Assembly (NCBI GenBank): GCA_030699005.1
Contig: JAUYLQ010000018.1
Span: 1-41,272 of the forward strand
DNA: 41,272 bases
Origin: an archaeon
GTDB lineage: Archaea; Nanobdellota; Nanobdellia; Pacearchaeales; GW2011-AR1
Direction of reading: 5' to 3'
In this document: positions 619 to 16,205 of the stretch, piece after piece
How positions within the stretch are numbered: the stretch's first letter is position 1
How the letters are laid out: every line of letters begins with the position of its first letter
Notes under the pieces: generated by a model
Told to the model about the DNA's origin: nothing
The model's database searches: none
What the model saw: only the letters and a program-made list of their open reading frames with translations
Made by a program: the position numbers and the translations under genes

Positions 619-1449
619 ATGAATAAAGAGGATTTTTTAAAAAAAATTGAAATAGAGCTCAAAATTTCCAAAAATTCAGTGTATACTATAAAAAATTACC
701 TTAAATCAAATAAGACACTTCTTGAATTCACAAAGAAAAAACCGGAAGAAGTGAATGAAGACGACGTAAAGGAGTATATTGCCGAAAATTTATCTGAGCG
801 CTCCGCAATTTCAATTATAATGTTTCTTGCCGCCGTAAAATTTGCGTATTCCTCAATTTTGAAAAAAGATTTAACCGCAAACATAAAAAGACCAAAAAGA
901 GAAAAGAAAATTCCGACAGTTTTAACCAAAAAAGAGGTGAAAAGCCTTTTTGATGCTTTAATCTCAAAAAAGTCCAGGCTCATGGTTTCTTTGATGTATG
1001 CGGCGGGTTTGAGAGTTTCAGAACTCTCTTACCTTAAAGTTGAAAATTTGAACTTTGAGGAGAAAATAGGGATGATAAAACAGGCAAAGGGCAAAAAGGA
1101 CAGGACTTTTAATATTCCAACATTTCTTTTTTTAAAATTAAAAAAACAGGTGGAAAGGCAAAAGAAAGTGGGAGAAGTTTACCTTTTTTCGGGAAGAAAT
1201 GGAAAGAAGATGTCTGAAAGAAATCTACAAAAGATTGTAAGAAATGCTGGAATAAAAGCTGAAATAAAAAAAGAGGTTCACTGTCACACTCTTAGGCACT
1301 CTTTTGCAACACATCTTTTAGAAAATGGCACTGACATCCGGCATATACAGGTTCTTCTGGGGCACTCGGACCTTAGTACCACTCAGATATATGCCCATGT
1401 TTCCAACGAAGAAATAAAGAAAATAAAAAGTCCGATTGATACATTATAA
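619..1449 (+). CDS. xerA: Tyrosine recombinase, archaeal XerA/XerCD-like
   Basis: C-terminal catalytic box 'AGLRVSEL...HTLRHSFATHLLENGTDIRHIQVLLGHSDLSTTQIYAHV' fits the R..HxxR..H..Y pattern. An N-terminal core-binding-like region is present. Confidence 0.8.
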   Translation: MNKEDFLKKIEIELKISKNSVYTIKNYLKSNKTLLEFTKKKPEEVNEDDVKEYIAENLSERSAISIIMFLAAVKFAYSSILKKDLTANIKRPKREKKIPTVLTKKEVKSLFDALISKKSRLMVSLMYAAGLRVSELSYLKVENLNFEEKIGMIKQAKGKKDRTFNIPTFLFLKLKKQVERQKKVGEVYLFSGRNGKKMSERNLQKIVRNAGIKAEIKKEVHCHTLRHSFATHLLENGTDIRHIQVLLGHSDLSTTQIYAHVSNEEIKKIKSPIDTL

Positions 1450-1450
1450 A

Positions 1451-1873
1451 ATGAATGAAATAGGAGAACTGAAGAAAGAGAATGAAAAGTTAAGAAGCGA
1501 ACTTGAAAAATTAAAGTCTGAGAAAGAAAGGCATAAGAGGGGGATGGCAAAAAAAGCAGGTGAAGGGGGAATCGTGGCAAGACCCCCGTTTGGTTACAAG
1601 GTTGTCGACGGAAAATTGGTAAAGGCAGAAAATTCTCAGGTTGTTGAAAATATCTTTCTTGAGTTTCAAGGTAATGAGGTAAGTTTAAACAAGTTGGGAA
1701 AAAAGTATGGATTTTCTGTAAATGGGATAAAAAAAATTCTTAAGAATTTCTCATATCTTGGAAAGGTAAAGTTTGCAGGAGTCGTATATAATGGAACTCA
1801 TGAGCCAATTGTTTCCTCCACGCTTTTTAATCATGTCCAGGATAAACTGGAAAGGTTGGGAATAAAAAGTTAA
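1451..1873 (+). CDS. Stand-alone 'Recombinase' domain protein (central domain of large serine recombinases) with an N-terminal coiled coil and no resolvase catalytic domain
   Basis: 'PPFGYKVVDGKLVKAENSQVVENIF..LNKLGKKYGFSVNGIKKILKNFSYLGKV..GTHEPIVSSTLFNHVQDKL' follows the pattern of the domain after the catalytic domain of large serine recombinases. The ATG at 1451 lies 1 nt after the xerA-like stop. The track start at 1436 is a TTG. Confidence 0.5.
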   Translation: MNEIGELKKENEKLRSELEKLKSEKERHKRGMAKKAGEGGIVARPPFGYKVVDGKLVKAENSQVVENIFLEFQGNEVSLNKLGKKYGFSVNGIKKILKNFSYLGKVKFAGVVYNGTHEPIVSSTLFNHVQDKLERLGIKS

Positions 1874-2284
1874 TTATCTGTAACTTGTCTGTCTTTTTGC
1901 CCTTGCTTTAGAATCTCCAGGTTTTCTTGTTTCTTTACGCCTGACGTCTGCTACAAGGAGGTTTCTGTCATACTCAAGGTAAGCTCTTTTCAATTCATCA
2001 GACTTTGAAAATTCAACGATTGCTTTTGCAATTGAAAGCCTTGCCGCTTCAATTTGGCCTTTTTCTCCTCCGCCTCGCACATTTGCTTCAATATCAAAGT
2101 TTATTTTTCCAAGAATCTTTTCAGCAATTCTTATTGGTTCCTCAATACTTAATCGATTTAAGATTTCAAGATTCTTATAGTTTTTTCCATTCACAGTAAT
2201 TTTTCCGTCGCCTTCATATAAAACCGCTCTTGCAACTGCAGACTTTCTTTTTCCTGATGAGTGAATTTTTAATTTTTCTGCCAT
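1874..2284 (-). CDS. rps9: 30S ribosomal protein uS9
   Basis: 'GKRKSAVARAVL..RGGGEKGQIEAARLSIAKAIV..KARAKRQTSYR'. Conserved order after uL13. Confidence 0.93.
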   Translation of the reverse strand: MAEKLKIHSSGKRKSAVARAVLYEGDGKITVNGKNYKNLEILNRLSIEEPIRIAEKILGKINFDIEANVRGGGEKGQIEAARLSIAKAIVEFSKSDELKRAYLEYDRNLLVADVRRKETRKPGDSKARAKRQTSYR

Positions 2285-2285: not shown

Positions 2286-2690
2286 TTAATTTAATTTATT
2301 TTTTGTGAAATTTTTAACTTCTGAATATTTCTTTTTTTTGTCTTCTGAAATTTTTAGGGCTTTTGAACTTTCCAGTTCTTTTGGAACTTTCGAATAGCAT
2401 CTTATCTTTTGGAATGCAATTTTTCCACGACCCATCCTCGCATCTGGAAGCATGCCCCTTATCGTTCTTTTTACGATTTTTTCGCTTGTTGCATGGTGTT
2501 TCGGACCTTTTTGGCCACTTCCAACTCTTCCTCTTTGTTCTTCAAAATCCCTTTTTATTGATTCAAAGTTTCCTGTAATTATTACATTCTCACAGTTTAT
2601 GATGGAAATCTCTTCGCCTTTCAAGGATTCCTTTGCCGCATAACTTGCAAGTCTTCCAAGAGTGGCTCCAGCTCCGTCTATTACCTTCAT
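2286..2690 (-). CDS. rpl13: 50S ribosomal protein uL13
   Basis: 'MKVIDGAGATLGRLASYAAKESLKGEEISIINCENVIITG'. Lies between eL18 and uS9. Confidence 0.93.
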   Translation of the reverse strand: MKVIDGAGATLGRLASYAAKESLKGEEISIINCENVIITGNFESIKRDFEEQRGRVGSGQKGPKHHATSEKIVKRTIRGMLPDARMGRGKIAFQKIRCYSKVPKELESSKALKISEDKKKKYSEVKNFTKNKLN

Positions 2691-3049
2691 TTGATTATTT
2701 TTACCTCTTTTGCGTCTTTATTCTTTTCTATTTCTTCTGACAATTTTTTTACCTCACACCCGGCTTTCAGCAGCTTTTCCTTAGCTTTTTCTGAAAAAGA
2801 AAGTGCCACGACTTTTAGTTTTTTTGGAGCGTCTCCCCCGCTCAAAACTTTTCCGCACACAACAACGGTTCCTGAATATTTTTGAAGCTCACTCAAATTA
2901 ACATCTTTTCTTTTTCTCCTAGGTCCAGTAAGGAGGCTTGCAACTTCAACCCATTTAGGATTCTTATTTGCAAGAAGAATAGTTTCGACTAAAAAGGGAT
3001 TTGTCTTTCTTGTGGCTTGCTTTTTTACTTTGGTTTTTGATTTTATCAT
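2687..3049 (-). CDS. rpl18e: 50S ribosomal protein eL18 (L18e)
   Basis: 'GPRRKRKDVNLSELQKY..VVVCGKVLSGGDAPKKLKVVALSFSEKAKEKLLKAGCEV'. Overlaps rpl13 by 4 nt. Confidence 0.85.
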   Translation of the reverse strand: MIKSKTKVKKQATRKTNPFLVETILLANKNPKWVEVASLLTGPRRKRKDVNLSELQKYSGTVVVCGKVLSGGDAPKKLKVVALSFSEKAKEKLLKAGCEVKKLSEEIEKNKDAKEVKIIK

Positions 3050-3165
3050 TTTTTAAAATAACGAGAAAAAATTTCCCGCTAATGCGCTAAGTTGTCTCAA
3101 CTCGCAGGTAAACTTTCGAGATTAGTTTATTTTATAAATGTTTGTGTTATCTGAATTTTAATTAA

Positions 3166-3277
3166 GTGGATTTGCTGAAGGCTGTTAATATTCTTTGGCT
3201 TACCCGCAAAATAAAAACTGGCGTGGATGTGCCGGATGTCACCAATATTCTTTGGTTCGTCCAGCACTCTCGATAGT
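3166..3277 (+). repeat. Two tandem 55-57 nt units, each carrying a copy of the 5' end of tRNA-Leu(CAA) followed by a CCAA-N6-TTGG hairpin/palindrome
   Basis: The degenerate copy GTGGATTTGCTGAAGG is at 3166. The exact copy GTGGATGTGCCGGA is at 3223-3236. The real tRNA starts at 3278. The hairpins are GTTAA-TATTCT-TTGGC (3184-3199) and ACCAA-TATTCT-TTGGT (3241-3256). Confidence 0.85.
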
Positions 3278-3360
3278 GTGGATGTGCCGGAGTGGTCAAA
3301 CGGGAGGGACTCAAGATCCCTTAGCTTATGCTTACCTAGGTTCGAATCCTAGCATCCACA
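3278..3360 (+). tRNA. tRNA-Leu(CAA), class II with a long variable arm
   Basis: Hand-folded cloverleaf: acceptor GTGGATG/CATCCAC, anticodon stem AGGGA/TCCCT, loop CTCAAGA, variable arm TAGCTTATGCTTAC, T arm CTAGG-TTCGAAT-CCTAG, discriminator A. Confidence 0.9.
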
Positions 3361-3454
3361 TAGAATTTTGATTTGAACCATGTCTTGGTCAATTGAATCC
3401 CGAAAATCTTTTGGCATTATCCTTACAAATTTCAAGATGGCAGTAGTTTGAGCC

Positions 3455-3475
3455 AGCATCCACATAGAATTTTGA
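3455..3475 (+). repeat. Direct repeat of the 3' end of tRNA-Leu(CAA) plus trailer
   Basis: AGCATCCACATAGAATTTTGA occurs at 3351-3371 and again at 3455-3475. The preceding AGTTTGAGCC resembles a decayed T arm (GGTTCGAATCC). Confidence 0.85.
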
Positions 3476-3665
3476 CTTTAAAGTCTTGGGTTTTTCACTC
3501 GCATTCTCGTCCAAAATTTCATTCCTAAAGGGTGTTACTTCTTAAAAAGACCATTACTCCAAAATCTTTAAATTTCCAAAATATCTCTAAATTTTAGAAA
3601 TTGTTACCTTTCTTGAATTACTACCGGAGAGAAAGGTTTATAAGTAACTATTAAGTGGTAAACAA

Positions 3666-4133
3666 ATGGAAAATGAGGTCAAAGATGCAATAAAGAAGGG
3701 TTTTTCAGAGTTGGGACTGGGGAAAAACCATGAAATACCCCTCCTTTCAGAAGATTCCTTCGATGAAATTGGAAAATCAAAAGTTGATGCCTTGAAAAAT
3801 TCAATCGAGGAAATTCATGAGATGATAAGGGGAAGAGAAAGACTAAGCAGAAAAATTCACGATGAAGGTGAAACTCTGAAGTCTGAAATAAAAGGATATT
3901 TGTCTGAAAATGAAAAAATGCAGATTGCGTCTTCAGACCCGACAAGAGAAAAAAATGATTTGCGGCACAAAAAAATAGAGATTTCTGAACTTCAGATGAA
4001 TGAAAAAATAGGGTGCTGGAAAGATGTTGCTCTTTTAAAAAAAGAGCTTAGAGAGTACGAAAGGGAACTTCTTGAAAAGGAAGAACGTCTAAAAATTTTC
4101 AATAAAATTTTGAAGGAGGAAAAATTGAATTAA
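3666..4133 (+). CDS. Hypothetical coiled-coil protein, E/K-rich
   Basis: 155 aa ORF with heptad-like charged sequence. TTTATAA at 3637-3643 lies about 26 nt upstream of the ATG, which suggests a leaderless transcript. It is the first gene of the tightly spaced cassette. Confidence 0.6.
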   Translation: MENEVKDAIKKGFSELGLGKNHEIPLLSEDSFDEIGKSKVDALKNSIEEIHEMIRGRERLSRKIHDEGETLKSEIKGYLSENEKMQIASSDPTREKNDLRHKKIEISELQMNEKIGCWKDVALLKKELREYERELLEKEERLKIFNKILKEEKLN

Positions 4134-4134
4134 A

Positions 4135-4962
4135 ATGTCAAACTTAACTAATTCAGAATTAATGAGGAGATTAGATTGCGGAAACTCAGTAACATCAAAT
4201 GAAGCGGCAGATGAATTAATTGACCGTTACCTTGTTAATAAGTATAAACCATCCCTTGAAAAAGTGTCTGAAAAGGTAGAACCTACAAAGAGAGGGTTGC
4301 CGGAATCCAATTCAAATGTAAAAGTGGGGGTTTTGGAAAATTTAATTTTTGTAACAAATAAAGAACTCTACACAGAAATCGTCGGGTATATGGATAAAAC
4401 TTTTCCTGAATCAAAAAGATATCTTTCGGGGATGCTGGCTTTTGACGATGGAGTAATGAAAGGTTCAAATCCCTATGTTGTCGTAGGAACAGACATGTTT
4501 TTAAGAAAAGTAAATTCAGGGTATAGGGTCGCAACCCAGGCAGACTTAGAAAAGAATTTAGATATGTTTTCAGGGTTTTACGTTGATTCTGGCTTAGCAA
4601 TAAGAGACTCCAGCGTATTAAAAGGACTGAAAATAAGTAATGATAACCTCCCCGTATTTATTAATTTAAGAGGTTTGGAAATAAATAATAATTTCGGGTT
4701 TACGCTCTCTAAAGAATCTTTGATTAAGAGGGCAAAATGTTTAAACTGGACTAATGGAACTCACTTTTCAAAAATAAATGATTATGGGCTTCCTAAAGAA
4801 GAAGATAAATCTTCTAAAAGACAAATTCGGACTGGAAACTCTGCTTTGTCTAGGGTTTACCTCTACGGGGGTGGTTACCTGGATGTCGGGGACGGCGATC
4901 TCGGGGACTCTAGTGACTATGGTCGGGTGGTTCTTGCAAAAGTAAATGGGGGGAAATATTAA
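4135..4962 (+). CDS. Hypothetical protein; distant paralog of the ORF at 35575-36294
   Basis: AAGGAGG lies upstream and the ATG is 1 nt after the previous stop. Shares the motifs 'G.l.F..G...GSNP' and 'GLP....R(T)...LSR..L..GG' with the second ORF. No family recognised. Confidence 0.6.
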   Translation: MSNLTNSELMRRLDCGNSVTSNEAADELIDRYLVNKYKPSLEKVSEKVEPTKRGLPESNSNVKVGVLENLIFVTNKELYTEIVGYMDKTFPESKRYLSGMLAFDDGVMKGSNPYVVVGTDMFLRKVNSGYRVATQADLEKNLDMFSGFYVDSGLAIRDSSVLKGLKISNDNLPVFINLRGLEINNNFGFTLSKESLIKRAKCLNWTNGTHFSKINDYGLPKEEDKSSKRQIRTGNSALSRVYLYGGGYLDVGDGDLGDSSDYGRVVLAKVNGGKY

Positions 4963-4963
4963 A

Positions 4964-6931
4964 ATGAATTCAGGAATATCTGTTGAAGAAATTGCAAGAA
5001 AGTTAAAACCAATACTCGGAAAAAAAATTGATGAGATTTATTTTAGATATATGAATAGTGAAAGCTATGAGGAAAAGGGGGAGATTACCCAGTTTTTAAC
5101 AGCACTTTACCAGAAGCATTTGAATCAACTTTTAGATAAAGATTTTTTACTTGAACCTCCAAAGGAAGAAATTCTTCAAGGGGAATATTCGCTTGCGAAA
5201 GTAAGTTATGCCGGAAAAACTCTTTTTCCATTTTACTTAAGAGAAAAAGACTGGCCAAGGCACGTATGTGTCACAGGTATGAGCGGAAGTGGAAAAACAA
5301 CTTTTGCATTAAATATTTTAAACAAATTTATAGAGAAAGATAAGCCTTTTTTAGTTTTTGACTGGAAAAAAAGTTTTAGGCCTTTAATGAAGATGGACAA
5401 TTCTGTTATGTGTTTTACGGTCGGAAACGAGGGGGTAAGTAACCTATTTAAAACAAACATAAACAGGCCTCCAAAAGGAGTTTCACCTAAAGAGTGGATT
5501 AATACTCTTTGTGATTTACTCACTGAAAGTTTTAATGTTTCATACGGAGTTCATAAGATTCTTCTTGAAACATTAGATGAGACTTTTAGGGGATGGGGAG
5601 TTTACGAAGGCTCTAACCTTTATCCAAACTGGGAGCATGTAAGAAGGATGCTTGAAGTAAAAGCAAGAGATTCCAAGGGAAGGGAAACAGGGTGGTATGA
5701 AAGTGCATTAAGGGTCGCAACCGTTCTCACTTTTGGGGACTTTGGAAAAGTTATAAACTACGACGGAAAAAAGAGCCTTTCAGTAGATGAGTTATTTAAT
5801 AAAAAAGTAGTTTTCGAGTTAAATTCATTGTCAAACATAGAGAAAAAGTTTTTTTGTGAATACATTTTAACTTATATCTACAAATTAAAAAAGGCCGGAA
5901 GTGAAAAAAATAATGGAGATTTCAATCACGCAATTTTAGTTGACGAAGCTCATAACATTTTCTTAAAGAAAAGAACGAGCTTTATGTCAGAATCAGTAAC
6001 GGACATGATTTACCGTGAAATGCGTGAATATGGAACAAGTTTGATTTGTTTGGATCAGCATATTTCAAAATTGAGTGATACAGTCGTGGGAAACAGTGCT
6101 TGTCACGTTGCATTCCAGCAACAGCTTCCAGAAGACGTTGATGAAATAAGTTCATTAATGCAGTTAAAGCAAAAAAAAGAAATTTTTACTCAACTTTCTG
6201 TAGGTTCAGCAATCGTAAAACTTTCAGAAAGGTACACATCCCCGTTTTTAGTGGAAGTTCCATTTACTGATTTAAGAAATGCAACTTTTGAAGACTCAAA
6301 AATAAGAAGCAAGATGGGAGCAGTTATCGAAGGATATGAAATTGAAAAAAATAACCCCGAGTTTAAGAAAGAGTTAATTGGAGAAAGTGAAGAGGAAGCA
6401 ATGAAAAGAGTTGATATCCGCCAAGTAAAAACAAGGAAAAAGGAATTTCAGGAAGTTAGAGAGTTCACAAAAACCCAAAAAGTTTTGTATGACTTTGTTA
6501 TTTCAAAGCAAAAAGAAAATAAAAAATTAAATGAAATTGAAAGGCTTCTTGACTCAGGGATTTCTTCAGGGTATTATACGAAAAAAGATGTGTTAATTGT
6601 AATAAATAAGACTTTAAGTGAGAAATTAAATAAAGGAAATGAAAAGAAAGAAGAAGGTTTAGAAGCTCCATTCATTCCATCCGACTTGTCCAAGGAAGAG
6701 CTTTTGTTTGTAGACTTTCTAAAAAGTTCTCCGAACCATGGCCTGTCAACAGTTGAAATTTACAAAGAACTTGGGTTATCATCAAGAAAAGGAAATGTTG
6801 TAAAAAAGAAACTCACAGAAAAAGGATTAGTAGAAATAGTTGAAGAGAGAAGTCCAAAAGGCTGGAAAAAATTACTAAAATTATCACATTCAAATTCAAA
6901 TAACTTAAACGAAATTTCAACAAACAACTAA
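4964..6931 (+). CDS. HerA/FtsK-superfamily (DUF87/AAA_10-like) P-loop ATPase with a charged linker and a C-terminal winged-helix DNA-binding region
   Basis: Walker A 'VCVTGMSGSGKTT', Walker B 'AILVDEAHNIF', and downstream 'LICLDQH'. The C-terminus 'LFVDFLKSSPNHGLSTVEIYKELGLSSRKGNVVKKKLTEKGLVEIVEE' is wHTH-like. The start at 4964 is preferred because a GGGGGG SD lies 10-16 nt upstream. An alternative ATG is at 4946. Confidence 0.75.
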   Translation: MNSGISVEEIARKLKPILGKKIDEIYFRYMNSESYEEKGEITQFLTALYQKHLNQLLDKDFLLEPPKEEILQGEYSLAKVSYAGKTLFPFYLREKDWPRHVCVTGMSGSGKTTFALNILNKFIEKDKPFLVFDWKKSFRPLMKMDNSVMCFTVGNEGVSNLFKTNINRPPKGVSPKEWINTLCDLLTESFNVSYGVHKILLETLDETFRGWGVYEGSNLYPNWEHVRRMLEVKARDSKGRETGWYESALRVATVLTFGDFGKVINYDGKKSLSVDELFNKKVVFELNSLSNIEKKFFCEYILTYIYKLKKAGSEKNNGDFNHAILVDEAHNIFLKKRTSFMSESVTDMIYREMREYGTSLICLDQHISKLSDTVVGNSACHVAFQQQLPEDVDEISSLMQLKQKKEIFTQLSVGSAIVKLSERYTSPFLVEVPFTDLRNATFEDSKIRSKMGAVIEGYEIEKNNPEFKKELIGESEEEAMKRVDIRQVKTRKKEFQEVREFTKTQKVLYDFVISKQKENKKLNEIERLLDSGISSGYYTKKDVLIVINKTLSEKLNKGNEKKEEGLEAPFIPSDLSKEELLFVDFLKSSPNHGLSTVEIYKELGLSSRKGNVVKKKLTEKGLVEIVEERSPKGWKKLLKLSHSNSNNLNEISTNN

Positions 6932-7013
6932 TAATCGACATTGACTGCATAAAAATAAGGCTTAACAAAATAACCTTAAAAATGTGTCAAAAAAGATTTT
7001 TAGAAAAATGCTT

Positions 7014-7176
7014 GAAATACCTTTAAAGTCGAAAAAGACTTTGAAGAAAAACCCTCGCGGTCGCTCAAAAGACCAAGAGAAATACCTTTGAACAAGAAGT
7101 TCAAAGAATGAAAAATCCTACTTTTAGGTATTTCCCCTTCTGAAATACCCCCGAAATACCCTGAAATTTGGTATTT
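7014..7176. repeat. Iteron/palindrome array built on the 8-mer GAAATACC
   Basis: Direct copies at 7014, 7079, 7142 and 7153. Inverted copies GGTATTTC at 7127-7134 and GGTATTT at 7170-7176. Also inverted repeats AAAGTC/GACTTT (7025-7042) and CTTTGAAC/GTTCAAAG (7086-7106). Confidence 0.85.
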
Positions 7177-7230
7177 AACGACGTTCTTTAGTAATTATTT
7201 TCTTTATTAATTAAATAAAAAGGTTTGCAA

Positions 7231-7932
7231 ATGAAACAAATTCTCAGTTTTATTAAAAATCAATGGGTCGAAATTCTTTTCTGGCTTCAAATAATCATGT
7301 CCTGGATTTACACTATCCCCTTAGTCATTCAAATCATCTCAGGAAAAACTGGTGGCCTAAACCTTGCAACATATTCTATTTACCTGATTTACCTTGGGTT
7401 AAGTCTCTCTTTAGCTTTTTCTTCCTTCTTCTCGCTTAAGAAAGAAATAGGAAACTTGCCAAATTTTCAACAGCAAAAAGCGTTAAAGGCAAGAAAGCAG
7501 ACAATAATCATCTTTTCACAATGGGCCTTTTTAGTAAGCCTTGTCTTATTATTTGGATTAAGAAATATAGTCTGGAAAGAGAGAGATACCGTCATCTGCT
7601 TGATTATCTTAGTTTTATCGCTTTTAACGCTAATTAAATATAAAGGATTGAAAGACCCATATTCAAAAGGGTTTCTTAATGTTTGGTGCAAATCCGTTCC
7701 TCAATTGTGGCTTGGCTATACAATTTTTGCAGACGCTAGTTCAGAGGGCCTTCCATTTTTGACCTTATTTTTTGGATATCTTACTGCTCTTCAAAGATTA
7801 ATTCAAGTCTGGATTGCAGGAAGAAGGGGGATTTGGGATAAGTCAACAAAGGGGCTAATGATGGGAGAAGGATCGAATGTTCTTTCTTGGAGTATTGTAG
7901 TCGTTCTTTGGGTAGTTTTCAGGCTAAATTAA
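7231..7932 (+). CDS. Seven-TM membrane protein, possibly PQ-loop repeat family (3+1+3 architecture)
   Basis: Two PQ-loop-like segments sit at the expected TM1 and TM5 positions: 'IPLVIQIISGKTGGLNLATY' and 'SVPQLWLGYTIFADASSEGLPFLTL'. The ATG at 7231 follows AAAAAGG. The track start at 7225 is a TTG. Confidence 0.45.
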   Translation: MKQILSFIKNQWVEILFWLQIIMSWIYTIPLVIQIISGKTGGLNLATYSIYLIYLGLSLSLAFSSFFSLKKEIGNLPNFQQQKALKARKQTIIIFSQWAFLVSLVLLFGLRNIVWKERDTVICLIILVLSLLTLIKYKGLKDPYSKGFLNVWCKSVPQLWLGYTIFADASSEGLPFLTLFFGYLTALQRLIQVWIAGRRGIWDKSTKGLMMGEGSNVLSWSIVVVLWVVFRLN

Positions 7933-7963
7933 AATAATTAATAAATAAAAAGGAGTGTGTGAG

Positions 7964-8164
7964 ATGATGTTTCAAGGGCCATCAATTCCAATCGCAATAT
8001 TCACATCTAGTTTATCTCTTATTGTTTATCTTTGTTCTACTCTAGCTTTTTCCCTGTTTTATGAAGGAACTTCCGATATTCCCAGGATAATTACAGCAAT
8101 TTCAATTGTTCCAAGTTTCTATTTTTCAATAAAAATAGTTGAAAAATTACAAAAAATTAACTAA
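7964..8164 (+). CDS. Small two-TM membrane protein
   Basis: 66 aa hydrophobic ORF with an AAAGGAG SD about 9 nt upstream of the ATG at 7964. The track start at 7955 is a GTG. Confidence 0.5.
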   Translation: MMFQGPSIPIAIFTSSLSLIVYLCSTLAFSLFYEGTSDIPRIITAISIVPSFYFSIKIVEKLQKIN

Positions 8165-8201
8165 CAATTTTTAATAAATTAAAAAATTAAAGAGGTGTTA
8201 A

Positions 8202-8816
8202 ATGAATTCTTTTATTCTCCTCATTCTTTTATTAATCAATTTTTCAATATCTTGGTTCAATGCTTGGTCAGCCGGCAGATTTTGGACTGAGTCAAAAATA
8301 ATGGGTGGTTGGACACGCTTACTCATATGGTGTGCTGTTATTATGTCCGCATGTGGCTTTACTTGGGTTTATTTAACAATAATCACTGCAATTTTATTAG
8401 GTTTTGGATGGCTTTCTCCACGGGCAGGGGAAGTAATGTTTAGTCTGGGTTACTTAATTATAATTGGTCCGGTAATTGGTTCGGGATTTGGGATTTGGAT
8501 TCATTCATTAGTTCAGGCATATAAAACAAAAAGGTTTGGGGATGTTGCTGTTGCAGGGTGGAATACTTTTGCACAAGTCCATAATATTTACAATGCAGCA
8601 AAGGAGGTTCCTAGTGCATGGAAGAGTGTTGTTGATGGTCTGAAGGGGGATTCCGATGATACTAAAGGAGTCGCAATTTTACTAATAGTCATTTTGGCTG
8701 TTGCAGGAGGAGCATTAACGACTGCAGGAATTGCAAGAAGAGCAGATCGCACACATGTTATAAATTTTTCACGAAGCATGAAAAACCTGAATAAAAAATC
8801 TCGCGATTCTTATTAA
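8202..8816 (+). CDS. Polytopic membrane protein (about 5 TM), no recognised family
   Basis: 204 aa with an AGAGGTG SD upstream. Hydrophobic segments are rich in W and G. Confidence 0.6.
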   Translation: MNSFILLILLLINFSISWFNAWSAGRFWTESKIMGGWTRLLIWCAVIMSACGFTWVYLTIITAILLGFGWLSPRAGEVMFSLGYLIIIGPVIGSGFGIWIHSLVQAYKTKRFGDVAVAGWNTFAQVHNIYNAAKEVPSAWKSVVDGLKGDSDDTKGVAILLIVILAVAGGALTTAGIARRADRTHVINFSRSMKNLNKKSRDSY

Positions 8817-8841
8817 ATTAAAATTTTAAATGTCCATTTTT

Positions 8842-8931
8842 TACCCCCGCAAGCACCCCAAATTTATTATCAGTTCATTCTGGGCGGGGGTTCTAATTAA
8901 TTTTTTATTAACTAAACAAAAAGGTGAAAAA
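8842..8931 (+). promoter_or_regulatory. Copy A of a conserved hairpin / AT-rich promoter-like / SD cassette
   Basis: 8-bp GC stem ACCCCCGC (8843-8850) / GCGGGGGT (8884-8891). This is followed by CTAATTAATTTTTTATTAA and AAAAGGTGAAAAAATG. It aligns over its full 93 nt with copy B at 10092-10184. Confidence 0.7.
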
Positions 8932-9186
8932 ATGCCAACTCAAATGGTTTTTTTAGTGTTAATCTTCTTAATTCTTGTCTTGTTTACCTCTATAAGGTAT
9001 AAAAAATTTACCTTTAGAGGATTCTTTTTAAGTGTTTTAATGGGTGTGGGAGTATATTTCTTCCTATTCATTTTCTCCACCTCAACTCCACCTACTGGGT
9101 TTTTTATATGGGTAGTCTCAATTTTAACAGCATTTATTTCCGGGATTATTTATGGACTGTTTTCCGAACAGTTTCTTTATCGCTAG
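8932..9186 (+). CDS. Small three-TM membrane protein
   Basis: The internal ATG at 8932 (MPTQMVF...) is preceded by AAAAGGTGAAAAA, identical to the leader of the gene at 10182. Confidence 0.55.
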   Translation: MPTQMVFLVLIFLILVLFTSIRYKKFTFRGFFLSVLMGVGVYFFLFIFSTSTPPTGFFIWVVSILTAFISGIIYGLFSEQFLYR

Positions 9187-9230
9187 GGTGAAAAAATTTA
9201 ATCAAAATTTAAAATAATGAGAGGGCAGTC

Positions 9231-9518
9231 ATGAAAAAATCAAAAATGAATCAACAAGTTTCCGCACTTATACTTTTATTGGTCTTGGGAATGGTGATTC
9301 TTGGAGTAGCAAAGTATTATTTATGGTCTTTTGATCAAATCATGCTGAGTTTTTTAATCGAAGGCTTTCTTTGTTTTGCGCTTTCAGTTCTTTTCGCAAG
9401 ATTTTCAAAAAATAAAGAGGTCTTTTGGACGGATAGTTCTATCGGGGCATCTATTTTTTTAATAACAGTCGTTGTAGTCTGGGTTCTAGGCAGAATTTAT
9501 CTGGCTCAATTTCAATGA
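9231..9518 (+). CDS. Small three-TM membrane protein
   Basis: 95 aa. Its first 15 nt, ATGAAAAAATCAAAA (MKKSK), are identical to the start of the next gene at 9553. Confidence 0.55.
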   Translation: MKKSKMNQQVSALILLLVLGMVILGVAKYYLWSFDQIMLSFLIEGFLCFALSVLFARFSKNKEVFWTDSSIGASIFLITVVVVWVLGRIYLAQFQ

Positions 9519-9552
9519 AATAACTTAATTTTAATTAATTAAAGGCAGAATT

Positions 9553-10083
9553 ATGAAAAAATCAAAATCTTTTAGTTTAGCATTTCTCTTGCTTGGAGCA
9601 TTAATCGCGATTTCTTTATTGGCATACTCCGTGAAAAATTTGTATGAAGAAATGAATGTTGAAATGGTAGTTTTCTGGTTAGTCCTAAATCTGTTCTCTA
9701 TAGTGTTAGGATATTCTTCGCTTGAATCTCTTGTAAAAATATTGAGAGAAGATCAGGGTGGAATTAAAAAGAAGTTCATTTTTGTTCTTAAGATGGTTTA
9801 TCAGGGAAGTTTATCCCTCATCTTGTTTTTGCTCGGGGCTTTTTTATTGTTAATTACCTTTTTAGTCTGCTTTTCTGAAGTTTTTAAGGAGTACTTACCT
9901 TTTTTGGATAACCCAAAAAATGGAGAGTTCCCCGTTTTAGTTATCTCCGTACTTGTCCTATTATCCGGATCAATTTCCATAATCAAGTACTCTTTCTTGT
10001 TCGAAAGATCTTTTGAAAAAAATATTTCAAAATTTAAAAAAGGGGAGATAGAAGAATTTGAGTTTTTGAAAGCCAATAATTAA
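9553..10083 (+). CDS. Membrane protein (4-5 TM), no recognised family
   Basis: 176 aa with an MKKSK N-terminus, hydrophobic segments and a charged C-terminal tail. Confidence 0.55.
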   Translation: MKKSKSFSLAFLLLGALIAISLLAYSVKNLYEEMNVEMVVFWLVLNLFSIVLGYSSLESLVKILREDQGGIKKKFIFVLKMVYQGSLSLILFLLGAFLLLITFLVCFSEVFKEYLPFLDNPKNGEFPVLVISVLVLLSGSISIIKYSFLFERSFEKNISKFKKGEIEEFEFLKANN

Positions 10084-10091
10084 AAATTCTT

Positions 10092-10181
10092 TACGCCCCC
10101 GAAAGAGCTTCAATTTTCTGTCTAGTTCGTTCTGGACGGGGGCACTAATTTATTTTTAATTAATAATTAAAAGGTGAAAAA
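10092..10181 (+). promoter_or_regulatory. Copy B of the conserved hairpin / promoter-like / SD cassette
   Basis: 7-bp GC stem GCCCCCG (10095-10101) / CGGGGGC (10137-10143). The loop ends in AGTTCGTTCTGG (copy A has AGTTCATTCTGG). It is followed by CTAATTTATTTTTAATTAA and AAAAGGTGAAAAAATG. Confidence 0.7.
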
Positions 10182-10718
10182 ATGAAAAAGAAAATTTTCT
10201 GGGGGATTGTCATAGGTCTAACTATAATCGGAACATGGGGAGGAAGTGAAAAAACTTTTTTATTTTATAATGTGAAGTCAGGAACAAGCTGGGGGATAAA
10301 TTTGGGGTTTCTGAATCAATTTCAAGAAGGTTCGATTCATAATGGATTAAATATCTCTGTTGCTGCATATATGGGAGAAGGTTCGATTCATAATGGGATA
10401 AATCTTTCCATTTTTACTATTATGAAAAAGGATTCAAAGGTTAGGGGAGTGAATCTTTCACTGTTTAGTTTTCCCCCAGAAGGAAGTGAAGGAGGAGTTG
10501 TTGAAGGAGTTGAAATAGGAATCATTGGCGTAGCAAACAATGATTCTGAACCTATAGCAAACAATGAATCTTCTGGACCTATCTCTCGAAAAGTGGAGGG
10601 GGTTCAAATAAATTTGCTGTATAACACTTCTATAGAAGGACCAACAGTTCAAATTGGGGTCTATAATGCCATTTATAAAAATGAAAAATGGCATGAATCA
10701 CTTTTATGCAATTTCTGA
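10182..10718 (+). CDS. N-terminally anchored or secreted repeat protein with degenerate G-[VI]-N-[LI]-[SG] repeats
   Basis: N-terminal hydrophobic segment 'IFWGIVIGLTIIG'. Repeats include 'EGSIHNGLNISV', 'EGSIHNGINLSI', 'RGVNLSLF' and 'EGVQINLLYN'. An exact 20-nt DNA repeat occurs at 10326 and 10377. Confidence 0.6.
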   Translation: MKKKIFWGIVIGLTIIGTWGGSEKTFLFYNVKSGTSWGINLGFLNQFQEGSIHNGLNISVAAYMGEGSIHNGINLSIFTIMKKDSKVRGVNLSLFSFPPEGSEGGVVEGVEIGIIGVANNDSEPIANNESSGPISRKVEGVQINLLYNTSIEGPTVQIGVYNAIYKNEKWHESLLCNF

Positions 10719-10736
10719 TAATCCATTTTATCTCAA

Positions 10737-10774
10737 AAAACCTCCCCATTCTGCCCTTCTTCGGGGGAGGTTTT
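10737..10774 (+). terminator. Stem-loop followed by a T-run just after the stop of the repeat-protein gene
   Basis: AAAACCTCCCC (10737-10747) pairs with GGGGAGGTTTT (10764-10774) across a 16-nt loop, and the stem runs into TTTTT. Confidence 0.6.
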
Positions 10775-10979
10775 TGCTTACAATTAAAAATCAAACCCAA
10801 AAACTCTTCTTTTTACAAACCTTAGGCAAGTCCTTGCCAAACAAAATCCAAAATTTAAAATGCAAAAGCTAAGTTTTAGAATAATCTAAAAATCAGGTTA
10901 AACAATATTTTTTTTGCAAAATTTTCAGGATATTTTTGCATTCCACTACATTTTTATAGATGTTTTTTTGTTTTTTAAT

Positions 10980-12020
10980 GTGAAAAGAGTGGTGATAATC
11001 GGAGGAGGTTTTACCGGGGCAAATACCGCAAAAATTTTAGAGAAAAATTTTGAGGTAATGCTAATTGATACAAAAGACTATTTTGAGTTCACTCCATCTA
11101 TTTTAAAGACTTTGACAAATCCCGAATTATTTAATAAGATTAAATTAAACCACCGGGATTACCTAAAAAAATCTCGTCTTGTTTTGGGAAAAGCAGAAAA
11201 AATTTCAAAAAATTCCGTTTTTGTCAATGGAAGAGAAATTTTTTTTGATTATCTTGTCATTGCAGCAGGTTCTTCTTATGAGACCCCATTAAAAAACCAT
11301 AATTCTTCTCCAATTTCAAAGTTAAACAATATAGAGGGGATTCATAAAAAAATTGAATTTTTTAAAAAAATTGTTATTGTTGGAGGAGGCCCGGTCGGAG
11401 TAGAGCTCGCTTCAGAATTAATAACTTTTTATCCGGGTAAGGAAGTGGTTCTTTTCACTTCATCCGGAAGTCTTATACCGAGGAATAGTCAAAAAAGCCA
11501 AAAAATTGCTCAAGATTTTTTGAAAAAAAAAGGGGTAAAAATAAACCTCAATAAACGAATTATTTCAAAAGAAAACACTTCTATTCTAGAAAATGGAAAG
11601 GTCATAACAGGAGACTATTTTTTTCTCTGCACTGGAATAAAAAATAATTCCGGTTTCATAGAAAAAAGCACGAAAGAAATGCTAAATGAAAAAAATCAGG
11701 TGAAAGTCAACAGTTTTTTGCAGGTTAGGGGATTTAAAAATATCTTTGCCGGGGGAGATATAATTGACACCGATGAAGAGAAAACCGCGCAATCTGCAGT
11801 TCTGCATTCATGGATAATTAACCGGAATATTATAAACATGGAAAAAAGAAAGAGTTTGATTAAGTATAAAATAAAGAAGCGCCTGACATTAATCAGCCTC
11901 GGAAGGGCCAACGGGATATTAGAGTATAAGGGCTTTAGCCTGGGGGGTTTAATTCCCGCAATTTTAAAAAAGATTATTGAAAAAAGGCAGTTAATCGGTC
12001 TTAAAACAAGATTATTTTAA
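10980..12020 (+). CDS. FAD-dependent pyridine nucleotide-disulfide oxidoreductase, type II NADH dehydrogenase-like
   Basis: Rossmann motifs 'VVIIGGGFTGANTA' and 'IVIVGGGPVGVELASEL', plus 'IFAGGDI'. The likely start is the GTG at 10980, with TTTTATAG about 25 nt upstream (leaderless). The track start at 10914 is a TTG. Confidence 0.75.
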   Translation: MKRVVIIGGGFTGANTAKILEKNFEVMLIDTKDYFEFTPSILKTLTNPELFNKIKLNHRDYLKKSRLVLGKAEKISKNSVFVNGREIFFDYLVIAAGSSYETPLKNHNSSPISKLNNIEGIHKKIEFFKKIVIVGGGPVGVELASELITFYPGKEVVLFTSSGSLIPRNSQKSQKIAQDFLKKKGVKINLNKRIISKENTSILENGKVITGDYFFLCTGIKNNSGFIEKSTKEMLNEKNQVKVNSFLQVRGFKNIFAGGDIIDTDEEKTAQSAVLHSWIINRNIINMEKRKSLIKYKIKKRLTLISLGRANGILEYKGFSLGGLIPAILKKIIEKRQLIGLKTRLF

Positions 12021-12722
12021 TTTTTTTGAAATTAATTCAATCTCTTTTTTAAGAACCTCTGTTGTTTTCTTAAAAATTTCTTCCGGTTCCATCTGACCGA
12101 AAGATTCAACTGTGAAAAGTAAGCTGTCCGTTTCTTTTACTTCAATATTTTTTTTGCCTTTTTGAGCAAGACCTTCGCAAAAATCAAGGATGGTTTTTTC
12201 TTTATCATCAAGGACCACAATTTTATTTCCTTTTGTTTTTATTTCATTTTTCGGGAAAGCATTTGAAATGTCCTTTTCACATTCTTTATCAAGAGTTATT
12301 TCGGTAACATCTCTGTAAAAAAGAATGCCTGGCGAAAATTTAGCGTGTTCCCTTCCAATCCCCATTTTTGTTGTCCCTTTTAACTTTAATTCTTGGTTAG
12401 TGTTTAAAAGAGTAAGAGGGATTTTATCATAAACAACTTCAAACTCACCTTTTATGCTGTCGGAATAAACTGTTCCTTCCTTTTTTGCGTCAATTTTGAA
12501 CTTTAGAACAGAATCTTTCTTCCAGGATTTTTCATATTTTATTGGAACAAGACCAAGCCTATGTGCAAGAGTCTCATCGTAAAGGGGAGAATCATTTCTT
12601 GAAATTTCAACTTCATCAATTGCCATAGTCGGAATTAGTCCTATACTTCTTCTGATTGCATTTGCAAGGCTTTCATTAGTCTTCAATTCGAAGGAAATTT
12701 TAGCTGGATTTTCTTTTTTCAT
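12012..12722 (-). CDS. rpoD: DNA-directed RNA polymerase subunit Rpo3 (RpoD)
   Basis: 'SLANAIRRSIGLIPTMAIDEVEISRNDSPLYDETLAHRLGLVPI'. Follows rps11 as in the conserved cluster. It has only two Cys, so there is no Fe-S domain. Confidence 0.88.
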   Translation of the reverse strand: MKKENPAKISFELKTNESLANAIRRSIGLIPTMAIDEVEISRNDSPLYDETLAHRLGLVPIKYEKSWKKDSVLKFKIDAKKEGTVYSDSIKGEFEVVYDKIPLTLLNTNQELKLKGTTKMGIGREHAKFSPGILFYRDVTEITLDKECEKDISNAFPKNEIKTKGNKIVVLDDKEKTILDFCEGLAQKGKKNIEVKETDSLLFTVESFGQMEPEEIFKKTTEVLKKEIELISKKLK

Positions 12723-12753
12723 CTTATTTTATTTTTTCGTGGTTTTTTAACTC

Positions 12754-13263
12754 TTATGGTCTCCTTCCTCTTCGTCCCCCTTTCACCTTTGGCCCTCCTC
12801 TGGGCATTCTTGTTGTGTCAAGGATGTTTAGAATTTTAAATCCATCTCTTGTAAGGCTTTTAACAATGCTGTGTGCTCCGGGACCCGGTGCAGGATTTCT
12901 TGTTTTTGCCCGTATACGGACATAAAAAGATTTTATCCCGAGGTCTTTAACTTCTTCTGCAATTCTTTTTGAAATAAACATGGCAATTGTCGGGTTTGCT
13001 TTAAGTCGGTTATGCTTCGTAATCATCCCGCCCGTAACTTTGGAGATAGTCTTTCCGGACATGTCCGTCACATGAACAATTGTATTATTAAATGAAGTGT
13101 AAATATTCATGATAGCTTCAGATTCTTTGCTAACTGTTGCTTTTCTAGACCCCGTCTCTTTTTCTCCTTCTGTTTTTTCCTTAGGTGCTTCTTCAATTTC
13201 CACCTCTTCAACTTCCTCTTTTTCCCTTTCTTTTTCGGATTCTTTTAATTTTTTTTCTGCCAT
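12754..13263 (-). CDS. rps11: 30S ribosomal protein uS11 with an E/K-rich N-terminal extension
   Basis: Core 'IMNIYTSFNNTIVHVTDMSGKTISKVTGGM..RIRAKTRNPAPGPGAHSIVKSLTRDGFKI'. Confidence 0.92.
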   Translation of the reverse strand: MAEKKLKESEKEREKEEVEEVEIEEAPKEKTEGEKETGSRKATVSKESEAIMNIYTSFNNTIVHVTDMSGKTISKVTGGMITKHNRLKANPTIAMFISKRIAEEVKDLGIKSFYVRIRAKTRNPAPGPGAHSIVKSLTRDGFKILNILDTTRMPRGGPKVKGGRRGRRP

Positions 13264-13731
13264 TTAATTTTCAGCCTCGCTTTTTACTTTCTTTTTTATT
13301 TCAATTTTATTTTCAAGTTCAACAGGAACTATGTAAGACGGACTGTCTACAACTCCCCCGTTGACAATTACTTTTTTATGGGTAATCATTTGCCTTGATG
13401 TTTTGATGGTTGGCGAAATTTTCTTTTTAAAAACAACTGTCTGAAGCCTTCTTTCAAGGTAATCAGTCTTGTCAAGTCCAAGAACGTCGGATATTGAAGA
13501 AACTTTGAGTCCCATTTTTTGCAGTCTCAAAAAAAGAGTTTTCTGCTCTTCAGGGTTTGCTTTAATGAGCTTTTTTGCTTTTTGTCTCATTACCCTTACT
13601 TTTGCATCAGCTTTCCAAATTTCTTTTTTGTTTTTCAGCCCATATTTCTTCTTTATAACTGCTTCCTCTTCAATTCTTGCTTTGTCAAAAGGTCTTTTTG
13701 GTCTTGAATATTTTTTATGCTTTCTTTTCAT
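13264..13731 (-). CDS. rps4: 30S ribosomal protein uS4
   Basis: 'YSRPKRPFDKARIEEEAVIKKKYGLKNKKEIWKA'. Position in the cluster. Confidence 0.92.
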   Translation of the reverse strand: MKRKHKKYSRPKRPFDKARIEEEAVIKKKYGLKNKKEIWKADAKVRVMRQKAKKLIKANPEEQKTLFLRLQKMGLKVSSISDVLGLDKTDYLERRLQTVVFKKKISPTIKTSRQMITHKKVIVNGGVVDSPSYIVPVELENKIEIKKKVKSEAEN

Positions 13732-13732
13732 T

Positions 13733-14254
13733 TTACTTTCCTCCTTTCGCAGGTTTCTTTCCCTTAAGAGCGGGTTCTCCCTTTACTGTTTTTTCTGCCT
13801 TTTTCTGAATTCCTGAACTTTTTCTCCTGTTTTTTCTGAAGTGGGATTGCGTTCTTTGACCTCTTGTAGGAAGGCCGAGAGTGTGTCTTATTCCTCTGTA
13901 ACTTTTAATCTTCTTTAATTTTTTAATATCAAATTCATTTCTTAGTTCAAGGTCAACACCAATTAGATGCTGGTTCTCTCCTGTTTCAGGGTCTCTTCGC
14001 CTATTTATAAGAAATTCCGGAGCGTTTGGGTTTTTTAGAAATTTGGTTATTTTTTCCATTTCAGGATCGGTCAGTTCACCGATTTTTTTCAGTTTATCTA
14101 TTCCAAGAATGCTGCAGGCTGCATTAGAAAGAGCCCATGAAACCCCTTTAATTTTTGTTAACCCAGGGTAAACTTTCATTTTACCCTCTATATCTTTAGA
14201 GAGGATTCTGACGATTCTCTCCTGGCTTTTTTGCTGTAATTCTGTTTTTTCCAT
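13733..14254 (-). CDS. rps13: 30S ribosomal protein uS13
   Basis: 'KIKGVSWALSNAACSILGID..YRGIRHTLGLPTRGQRTQSHFR'. Confidence 0.92.
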   Translation of the reverse strand: MEKTELQQKSQERIVRILSKDIEGKMKVYPGLTKIKGVSWALSNAACSILGIDKLKKIGELTDPEMEKITKFLKNPNAPEFLINRRRDPETGENQHLIGVDLELRNEFDIKKLKKIKSYRGIRHTLGLPTRGQRTQSHFRKNRRKSSGIQKKAEKTVKGEPALKGKKPAKGGK

Positions 14255-14255
14255 T

Positions 14256-14792: not shown

Positions 14793-14797
14793 TTTCT

Positions 14798-15088
14798 TTA
14801 TTTGTGTTCTTTAATTGTCGATAAAATTGTATTTGTTTCATTTTCATCAAGGTTTGAATCAGGTAATATTTTTGATAATTCGTCCTTATCTTCAGGAAGA
14901 AAATCAAGGATTTTTGAAAGGTGTTTATCATTTAATTTGATTAGGTTTAGTGAATTCAGTTTGCCTCTTAGTTCATCTGCCTTCTTGTCGCTCAAAGCAG
15001 TAAACTTTTTCATAAAAGTTTTTATTTCTGGATCCTTGACATAGGAAATTGATTCAGCAATACTAAGAGGAGTTGTTTTTCTTATCAT
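14798..15088 (-). CDS. rpoF: RNA polymerase subunit Rpo4 (RpoF, Rpb4-like)
   Basis: Size (96 aa), helical K/E/L-rich sequence, and conserved position between rpl21e and DUF655. Overlaps rpl21e by 4 nt. Confidence 0.65.
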   Translation of the reverse strand: MIRKTTPLSIAESISYVKDPEIKTFMKKFTALSDKKADELRGKLNSLNLIKLNDKHLSKILDFLPEDKDELSKILPDSNLDENETNTILSTIKEHK

Positions 15089-15357: not shown

Positions 15358-15411
15358 AAATATTGAGAAAAAGAACTCATTTAAAAACTTATCTTTTAAA
15401 TAAAAAAGGGG

Positions 15412-16193: not shown

Positions 16194-16205
16194 TTACATT
16201 AAAAA

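Follow-up and report, generated by a model that had tools for sequence, protein, structure and literature searches.

The split at the rpoD/rpl18e junction

The stretch of DNA analysed here, referred to as the window, is the 41,272-nucleotide (nt) contig JAUYLQ010000018.1 of assembly GCA_030699005.1. It is a Pacearchaeota (DPANN) contig, and the nearest relatives of its RpoD, at 72-85% identity, are labelled Pacearchaeota or Nanoarchaeota. On the minus strand, the blocks rps13-rps4-rps11-rpoD and rpl18e-rpl13-rps9 are separated by an interval of 8,962 bp (3050-12011) in which all called genes lie on the plus strand. This arrangement had been described in a first-pass annotation of the sequence, and Pfam matches and coordinates agree on it. 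Likewise, the published gene order places rpoD next to rpl18e, with a tRNA-Leu gene at the junction (PMC10833476). The interval is occupied by tRNA-Leu(CAA), an open reading frame (ORF) of 155 amino acids (aa) termed o155, an ORF of 275 aa termed o275, a P-loop ATPase gene, a repeat-containing structured element, seven small genes and a flavoprotein gene. We consider it very probable that the interval is an old, vertically inherited interruption of S13-S4-S11-rpoD-(tRNA-Leu)-L18e-L13-S9 that is common to a large Pacearchaeota/Woesearchaeota clade. The junction is thus an old, fixed split with fast turnover in its middle. Its fixed part consists of tRNA-Leu(CAA), o155 with the winged-helix ATPase, and the GAAATACC element, and its fluid part consists of the o275 slot and the co-directional small-gene array.

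The contigs of relatives were fetched through RpoD homologues at 79, 78, 73, 54 and 52% identity and ATPase homologues at 82, 75 and 70% identity; a single-protein RpoD search of genome contigs recovered no relative. A single layout was found in the fetched contigs, in all seven of the RpoD or ATPase contexts and down to 52-54% RpoD identity. From left to right, it comprises a Xer recombinase gene and a 'Recombinase' fragment on the plus strand, rps9-rpl13-rpl18e on the minus strand, tRNA-Leu(CAA) wherever it was scanned for, o155 (+), the optional gene or genes of the slot, the ATPase (+), a run of plus-strand genes, rpoD-rps11-rps4-rps13-DUF655-Rpb4-L21e on the minus strand and, finally, rpoN (+); a HAD hydrolase gene lies upstream of Xer in some relatives. 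A scan with an ATPase profile, using one genome per species of the GTDB, identified a relative in 213 species, and 80 loci were kept. Among the 59 informative species-representative loci, defined as those with at least 3 kb upstream of o155, rpl18e-rpl13-rps9 was divergent to the o155-ATPase pair in 36, which are hereafter called linked. The distance from rpl18e to rpoD is 5,344-12,676 bp in 14 linked loci and greater than 12.8 kb, i.e., beyond the fetched flank, in nine; it reaches 25.6 kb in JANLHM010000005, so that the interval ranges from 5.3 to approximately 25.6 kb across relatives and the 8,962 bp of the window lie inside this range. The first-pass annotation had viewed the junction as an insertion or rearrangement hotspot, and had named a cluster routinely split at this point throughout the lineage as the observation that would speak against this view. 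The comparison shows exactly such a split.

In a neighbour-joining tree of the ATPase, one clade contains all of the loci scored as linked and the other all of those scored as unlinked; loci whose upstream sequence is too short for scoring occur in both. In the sister clade, the o155-ATPase pair follows a nucleotidyltransferase gene, rpl35Ae, rpl10e and a UPF0020 methyltransferase gene on the same strand (loci L047-L078; e.g., L052, 5273-9969). Because the module occupies another place in the sister clade, it predates the split and came to lie between rpoD and tRNA-Leu on a single occasion. Its position among translation genes in both clades argues for a housekeeping-like, vertically inherited unit.

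The details of the layout are listed in Table 1. The two ribosomal blocks are packed with spacers of up to 31 nt, as had been reported, and the lower end of the range is a 4-nt overlap rather than a spacer of 0 nt. The end of the flavoprotein gene overlaps the rpoD stop codon by 9 nt. The displacement of rpoN to the opposite strand is corroborated by Pfam, and rpoN is displaced in the same manner in relatives. The window is a metagenome-assembled contig, which would allow for an assembly chimera at 3050 and/or 12011; against this, an independent Logan assembly contig (L001) is 100% identical to the window across 11836-16144 and spans the right junction, and both junction adjacencies recur in dozens of independent assemblies. 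We regard the chance of such an artefact as negligible.

Table 1. Features at the junction and in the flanking ribosomal blocks (window coordinates).
Feature	Position	Strand	Evidence or remark
XerC/D-type tyrosine recombinase	619-1449	+	Pfam Phage_integrase 9.5e-44; outside interval
145-aa protein, 'Recombinase' domain only	1436-1873	+	Pfam PF07508 1.8e-07; converges on rps9 stop
rps9	1874-2284	-	Pfam
rpl13	2286-2690	-	Pfam
rpl18e	2687-3049	-	Pfam
Two tandem ~57-nt units upstream of tRNA-Leu(CAA)	3166-3255	+	
tRNA-Leu(CAA)	3277-3361	+	ARAGORN; Rfam tRNA 58 bits
Partial tRNA 3'-end copy plus flank	3455-3481	+	Repeat analysis
o155, 155-aa ORF	3666-4133	+	No Pfam family
o275, 275-aa ORF	4135-4962	+	No Pfam or PDB match
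HerA/VirB4-like P-loop ATPase, 661 aa	4946-6931	+	Pfam DUF87; likely true start 4964
Structured RNA-like element with GAAATACC repeats	7009-7180	+	Repeats, covariation; no Rfam match
Seven small genes: m235, s69, m204, m118, m95, m176 (transmembrane-like segments), s178 (probably secreted)	7225-10718	+	
Pyr_redox_2 flavoprotein, NDH-2-like	10914-12020	+	Pfam 1.6e-37; converges on rpoD
rpoD	12012-12722	-	Pfam
rps11	12754-13263	-	Pfam
rps4	13264-13731	-	Pfam
rps13	13733-14254	-	Pfam
rpoN	15668-15877	+	Pfam RNA_pol_N 1.6e-25

Two recombinase genes at the rps9 stop codon had been listed among the features of an insertion or rearrangement hotspot. Their flush abutment (1873/1874) is real. However, Xer copies with 60-79% identity occupy the equivalent place in linked loci, and the 'Recombinase'-domain gene beside them in relatives is 45-75% identical; the resolvase catalytic domain is absent from the 145-aa protein according to Pfam. 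The Xer gene is therefore a conserved chromosomal neighbour of rps9 and not the integrase of an island, and the two genes, which are present beside rps9 in relatives too, do not mark a mobile element here. In addition, searches with Pfam, NCBIfam and PHROG profiles detected no integrase, relaxase, replication or capsid family among the ORFs of the interval. The composition of the interval is also that of its surroundings. The GC content is approximately 0.34 across the whole window, with 0.337 for the interval and 0.338 for the rest, and the tetranucleotide content of the interval is unremarkable, with a distance below the average and 58 of 65 equal-length segments at least as distant.

According to the first-pass annotation, tRNA-Leu has duplicated ends, and the repeat analysis bears this out: the pairs formed by GTGGATGTGCCGGA at 3223 and 3278 and by AGCATCCACATAGAATTTTGA at 3351 and 3455 are far above the shuffle expectation. 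Each of the upstream tandem units consists of a partial copy of the tRNA 5' end followed by a promoter-like box, AATATTCTTTGG, at -33 to -28, and the partial 3' copy lies 104 nt downstream of the original. The 5'-copy design was also found in L009 and L011 and the 3' copy in L009, and the latter therefore predates the split between these species. The 21-nt repeat of the tRNA end has two copies, at 3351 and 3455, with no further copy in the 41 kb at up to three mismatches and none at the far boundary of the interval. Furthermore, the same 5'-copy design is present at a second gene, tRNA-Leu(AAG) (16946-17030), which is preceded approximately 54 nt upstream by its own first 14-16 nt and then the box CCAATATTCTTTGG (17031-17087, minus strand); this box, placed after an exact copy of the gene's own first 14-16 nt, is common to the CAA and AAG tRNA-Leu genes. 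In the loci examined, 5' copies were found only at tRNA-Leu genes (7/45 for CAA and 2/10 for AAG), and each copy matches its own tRNA. The partial copies are thus old local features of tRNA-Leu promoter regions. We rejected the possibility that they are attachment (att) sites of the interval because they lie only 55-104 nt away, are present in relatives too and, in the case of the 5'-copy design, also occur at tRNA-Leu(AAG).

The orientation of tRNA-Leu(CAA) between rpl18e and o155 varies among the linked loci: the gene is on the strand of rpl18e, which is the canonical state, in 31 loci and is inverted in 10. The inverted state was found in the window and its nearest relatives and, over loci L009-L014, L017, L030 and L063, in this sublineage and in two or three other branches. 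In the ATPase tree, it appears in the subclade of the window and again in L017 and L030; therefore, it had more than one origin or underwent reversal. For the DPANN archaeon AR10, the contiguous order rpoD-tRNA(Leu)-L18e is reported (PMC10833476). tRNA-Leu(CAA) is thus the ancestral occupant of the rpoD/L18e junction and has been locally inverted in the sublineage of the window. An inversion between two inverted tRNA-Leu genes was also considered as the origin of the split and was rejected, because undoing it would not rejoin rpoD and rpl18e.

Two further tRNA genes of the window deserve a brief record. The tRNA-Gly(TCC) gene at 16205-16298 (minus strand) is 94 nt long, and its length is 89-92 nt in L002 and L017 and 71-73 nt in the other relatives; this difference probably reflects an intron in some lineages. 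Downstream of tRNA-Arg(CCT), at a distance of 56-85 nt, 12 nt of its 3' end recur exactly in the window (at approximately 16800, minus strand), L004 and L090.

The o155-ATPase pair and the structured element

Within the interval, the ATPase and its upstream partner are conserved to the same degree as the flanking core genes. Identity to close relatives is 69-86% for o155 and 70-82% for the ATPase, compared with 72-79% for rpoD and 58-71% for rpl18e, and o155 lies upstream of the ATPase in almost all of the 80 loci. The protein encoded by o155 has no Pfam family and no transmembrane (TM) segment, and it is probably a soluble coiled-coil-like protein encoded by the first gene of the module. The ATPase has a mean column identity of 65% over 21 diverse homologues, in which Walker A (GMSGSGKT) and Walker B (VDEAH) are invariant. 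A description of an o155-ATPase module was not found in the literature searched.

An ATPase in the interval had been predicted in the first-pass annotation, and Pfam identifies it as a DUF87/HerA-type protein through its central DUF87 domain (9.2e-10; 39.4 bits against a cut-off of 23.2). The best Foldseek matches of an AlphaFold model (mean predicted local distance difference test score of 74.7) are DndH-C, HerA and VirB4, with TM-scores of 0.72 (on target) for DndH-C and 0.68-0.70 for the VirB4 C-terminal domain, and the matches also include SIR2-HerA, DUF4297-HerA and TdpAB. A C-terminal winged helix is predicted from a match to phrog_11046 at residues 595-646 and from the AlphaFold model. 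The ATPase contains neither an FtsK_SpoIIIE Pfam match nor a TM segment. The curated family models returned scores of 20.2 bits for HerA (NF040937; cut-off 800), 19.1 for VirB4 (TIGR00929; cut-off 643, with the VirB4 N-terminal domain included in the criterion) and 54.9 for CedD (cut-off 600, matching the ATPase core only). A PDB sequence search with the ATPase profile yielded one marginal HerA match only, and PADLOC assigned no system, with HerA models reaching at most 41 bits over approximately 100 residues and no match for o155 or o275. Moreover, no NurA, Mre11/Rad50, SIR2 or DUF4297 partner lies beside the ATPase, o155 and o275 belong to no Pfam or NCBIfam family, and the same applies to the neighbours in relatives. 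Because the scores are below the curated cut-offs and a NurA, SIR2 or DUF4297 neighbour is lacking, we go no further than placing the ATPase, with its DUF87 core, in the FtsK-HerA superfamily.

The similarity of the DNA to that of relatives continues past the ATPase stop codon (6931) to approximately 7180-7233. Here, GAAATACC occurs six times within 166 nt (7013+, 7078+, 7127-, 7141+, 7152+ and 7170-), a near-copy, GAAAAACC, was recognized by eye at approximately 7051, and the only other exact copy of the 8-mer on either strand of the window is located at 3732, inside o155. Across 71 loci (1.19 Mb), 137 of the 229 matches to GAAATACC/GGTATTTC fall within 500 nt after the ATPase stop codon, which corresponds to 3.26 per kb versus 0.078 per kb elsewhere. 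At least one copy of GAAATACC is present in 58 of these loci and at least two copies are present in 44, and copies after the ATPase were also found in several sister-clade loci. A conserved AAAGATTTT box located approximately 25-30 nt before the first repeat could be the promoter of the element.

RNAalifold, applied to a MAFFT alignment, predicted three hairpins enclosed by a GAAAUAC/GUAUUUC helix, and the element is ordered as three covarying hairpins followed by two palindromic hairpins. In a structure-blind alignment of eight sequences, 13 of 33 pairs are compensatory, compared with 4.9 +/- 1.6 in shuffles (0/500), and at most four pairs are compensatory when the partners are slid. A covariance model located the element in 25 loci, with a single copy in the window; 24 of the 25 are on the plus strand directly after the ATPase. 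Compensatory changes affect 30 of the 33 pairs in these 25 matches, in an alignment that was fitted by the model and favours its structure. Folding gives z-scores of -6.2 for the plus strand and -3.0 for the minus strand, and G-U pairs are frequent. Rfam 15 contains no match over 7009-7180, and only the tRNA was detected at E<=1 in 2900-12200. The element appears to be a new structured RNA. A conserved small peptide, encoded by a 35-aa ORF at 6984-7091, was also examined as a candidate and was rejected because relatives differ by non-triplet indels and the hairpins covary.

The same 8-nt motif occurs in frame within the two conserved genes of relatives, often in tandem, in the poorly conserved N-terminal part of o155 (codons ~6-26) and in the linker of the ATPase (residues ~487-528). 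There, it encodes EIP, often as EIPEIP, and is written as GAA-ATA-CCN in 34 of 46 cases; the ATA codon is used in 35 of 46, whereas ATA makes up 34% of the Ile codons in these genes. By our own arithmetic, this excess of ATA in EIP amounts to approximately six standard deviations, which points to selection on the nucleotides.

The variable middle and the origin of the interval

Whereas the ends of the interval are fixed, its middle is fluid: most or all of the linked loci compared carry tRNA-Leu, o155, the ATPase and the structured element, and neither the slot gene nor the array of the window recurs in them. Counterparts of o275 and of the small ORFs were searched for in 6 loci at E<=1e-3 and in 80 loci at E<=1e-5. 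No counterpart of o275 or of the seven small ORFs was detected in the loci compared. The slot between o155 and the ATPase measures 0-2.7 kb. About half of the loci have no gene in it and the rest have one or several small, unrelated genes, with 65 ORFs in 45 clusters across the loci, and Pfam recognized almost nothing in ten slot genes from relatives. For o275, 108 distant relatives were identified among 1.84 billion representatives. A hypervariable gene immediately upstream of an ATPase with Foldseek matches to SIR2-HerA, DUF4297-HerA, TdpAB and DndH recalls HerA-based anti-virus defence, in which o275 would be the effector, as in SIR2-HerA or DUF4297-HerA. However, PADLOC yields only the weak ATPase-domain matches described above and no effector match, the slot gene is altogether missing from about half of the loci, and core-like conservation with fixed synteny is unlike the patchy distribution of defence islands. 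We consider defence improbable.

Downstream of the ATPase, the first-pass annotation had counted seven genes for membrane or secreted proteins, and our analysis agrees, with six ORFs that have TM-like segments and one, s178, that is probably secreted and has no TM-like segment at the threshold used. Small ORFs with multiple or single TM segments follow the ATPase in nearly all loci. Across the loci compared, 671 ORFs lie downstream of the ATPase; 564 of these point in the same direction as the ATPase gene, 429 contain TM-like segments and 480 are singletons. One member of the array, m204 (8202-8816; 204 aa, four TM segments), matches phrog_37671 (1.2e-43), and its nearest relatives, which are at most 59% identical, are found in bacteria of the Candidate Phyla Radiation (CPR), Verrucomicrobia and phages. 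Hypothetical proteins of diverse phages (T5-like and jumbo Burkholderia phages) and of CPR bacteria match it at 40-59% identity. A close orthologue was not detected in the related Pacearchaeota loci, and this pattern fits horizontal acquisition. In the secreted-protein ORF at 10182-10718, a 51-nt tandem duplication (73% identity) at 10325-10426 repeats EGSIHNG(L/I)N(I/L)S. The last gene of the interval, which had been called NDH-2-like, is indeed a Pyr_redox_2 flavoprotein gene according to Pfam, and a counterpart beside rpoD was found only in L004 (61%) and L011 (51%) among the loci compared.

At first glance, these genes suggest a recent mobile or accessory island, inserted at tRNA-Leu by means of the neighbouring recombinases and carrying strain- or species-specific cargo. 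The end duplications of the tRNA and the recombinase genes nearby fit this explanation, as do the middle genes without counterparts in relatives, the phage and CPR affinities of m204, and an ATPase family that is common on mobile elements (weak matches to Zot, A32, terminase, VirB4 and TraD). However, the same split with the same end genes is present in 36 species representatives, the composition is native, the far boundary lacks the tRNA-end repeat, Xer and the 'Recombinase' fragment are conserved at their place in relatives, and the partial tRNA copies recur in L009 and L011, with their 5' design present at the unrelated tRNA-Leu(AAG). A recent island is therefore very unlikely. The terms hotspot and accessory can be retained for the variable middle, namely o275 and the small-gene array, and not for the interval as a whole, which is old and lineage-wide.

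Some of the same observations could be accommodated by a much earlier event, in which the ancestor of the clade acquired, by a single integration next to tRNA-Leu, a module of conjugative or viral origin (a VirB4/HerA-like ATPase with membrane proteins) that was then fixed as a domesticated element. The module adjoins a tRNA gene, many small membrane protein genes follow it, the ATPase shares its fold class with VirB4, DndH and packaging ATPases, and the different chromosomal place in the sister clade means that the module moved at least once. Against this origin, the module is strongly conserved and embedded among translation genes in both clades, the interval ORFs include no integrase, relaxase, capsid or replication gene, and the ATPase tree divides cleanly by context, as vertical descent predicts. 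We regard domestication as unlikely, with some weight left to it, and return to an old, vertically inherited interruption as the reading that the comparison favours. The split itself is an ordinary synteny trait of the lineage, and its interest lies in its occupants.

A candidate surface apparatus and its relation to known systems

What the fixed module might do can be approached through the fold and the neighbourhood of its genes. The ATPase, as its structural relatives are, would be a hexameric ring translocase of nucleic acid. The coiled-coil partner o155 and the membrane proteins of the array would work with it in transfer or uptake at the surface of the symbiont, and the array would supply the fast-evolving membrane components of this surface apparatus. 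The motif GAAATACC, which is found behind the ATPase gene as well as within the 5' part of o155 and the ATPase linker, would be a cis signal recognized either by the winged helix or by a partner that binds RNA. We offer such ATPase-driven, membrane-associated transfer or uptake, with GAAATACC as its cis signal, as a tentative proposal. The broader version is more speculative: o155, the ATPase, the GAAATACC structured RNA and the membrane array might form one undescribed, lineage-wide apparatus, a translocating machine at the symbiont-host interface for which the motif is a loading or regulatory signal and whose membrane parts evolve quickly with the host.

Several points weigh against these readings. 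The functional part is drawn from fold and neighbourhood; the scores of the ATPase fall far short of the cut-offs set for the HerA, VirB4 and CedD families; and no gene of the array has homology to VirB6/CedA-type or pilin components that Pfam or NCBIfam could detect. As to the element, the alignment of the covariance model leans towards its own structure, and the closing GAAAUAC/GUAUUUC helix hardly covaries, so that its two arms resemble a sequence motif present in both orientations more than an established helix; the element may be an operator array acting at the level of DNA, the 5' leader or 3' untranslated region of a transcript, or a separate RNA. As to the split, its apparent monophyly is read from a midpoint-rooted neighbour-joining tree of one protein, and the relatives are contigs of metagenome-assembled genomes for which 10-kb flanks miss the long intervals.

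These findings have a practical consequence for genome scanning, since a ribosomal cluster that is interrupted next to a tRNA and recombinase genes may be a long-established, fixed trait of a lineage and not an island. For DPANN archaea, they reveal a gene pair as conserved as ribosomal proteins, present in at least 213 species representatives and located among translation genes in two clades. This pair, o155 and the ATPase, goes together with an 8-nt motif specific to the module, a structured RNA that appears to be new and fast-evolving membrane proteins. In archaea that depend on contact with a host, little is known about the transfer of material across that contact, and the module is a concrete, testable candidate.

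The canonical archaeal cluster is contiguous as S13-S4-S11-rpoD-(tRNA-Leu)-L18e-L13-S9-rpoN (PMC10833476). The window retains the same genes, the same internal order and tRNA-Leu at the rpoD/L18e junction. It differs in that, in its clade, 5-25 kb of genes on the opposite strand interrupt the cluster after rpoD, rpoN now lies upstream of L21e-Rpb4-DUF655-S13 on the other strand, and the tRNA is inverted in the sublineage of the window. In Asgard archaea, the cluster is split at a different point, S11|rpoD (PMC10833476). Like islands targeted to tRNA genes, the interval is bordered on one side by a tRNA gene, contains partial tRNA copies and variable cargo, and has recombinase genes in its vicinity; unlike them, it has native composition and conserved ends, with neither an att repeat at the far edge nor an island integrase.

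Regarding the ATPase, the nearest functional analogies may lie with CedB/CedD (PMC11868833), the VirB4-like ATPases of nanohaloarchaea (PMC10266531) and the gamma domain of FtsK with its KOPS (FtsK orienting polar sequences), in each case as an analogy for a protein that falls short of family membership. It shares the RecA-like P-loop core and DUF87 signature with the HerA/VirB4/DndH superfamily and, as with the ATPases of the Ced system (DNA import in Sulfolobales) and of type IV secretion systems, genes for small multi-TM proteins follow it (PMC11868833). In contrast to HerA, VirB4 and CedD, it has a predicted C-terminal winged helix, a partner in o155, a setting among translation genes and core-like vertical inheritance. 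The winged helix of the FtsK/SpoIIIE gamma domain reads 8-nt motifs, KOPS or SRS (SpoIIIE recognition sequences). The ATPase of the window resembles these proteins in its predicted order of motor domain, linker and C-terminal winged helix and in the oriented 8-nt motif nearby; it differs in lacking a membrane anchor and in having a motif that is confined to the module instead of being chromosome-wide, and motif reading is a candidate function by analogy. In nanohaloarchaea, VirB4/TraG-like ATPases are encoded beside giant surface proteins and have been proposed to form a secretion system for host interaction (PMC10266531). In both cases, a DPANN lineage has a VirB4-class ATPase with a genomic link to proteins of the cell surface. 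However, the nanohaloarchaeal ATPase has a recognizable VirB4 N-terminal domain and is fused or adjacent to giant proteins with immunoglobulin repeats, whereas that of the window is a separate soluble protein whose gene is followed by those of many small, unrelated membrane proteins.

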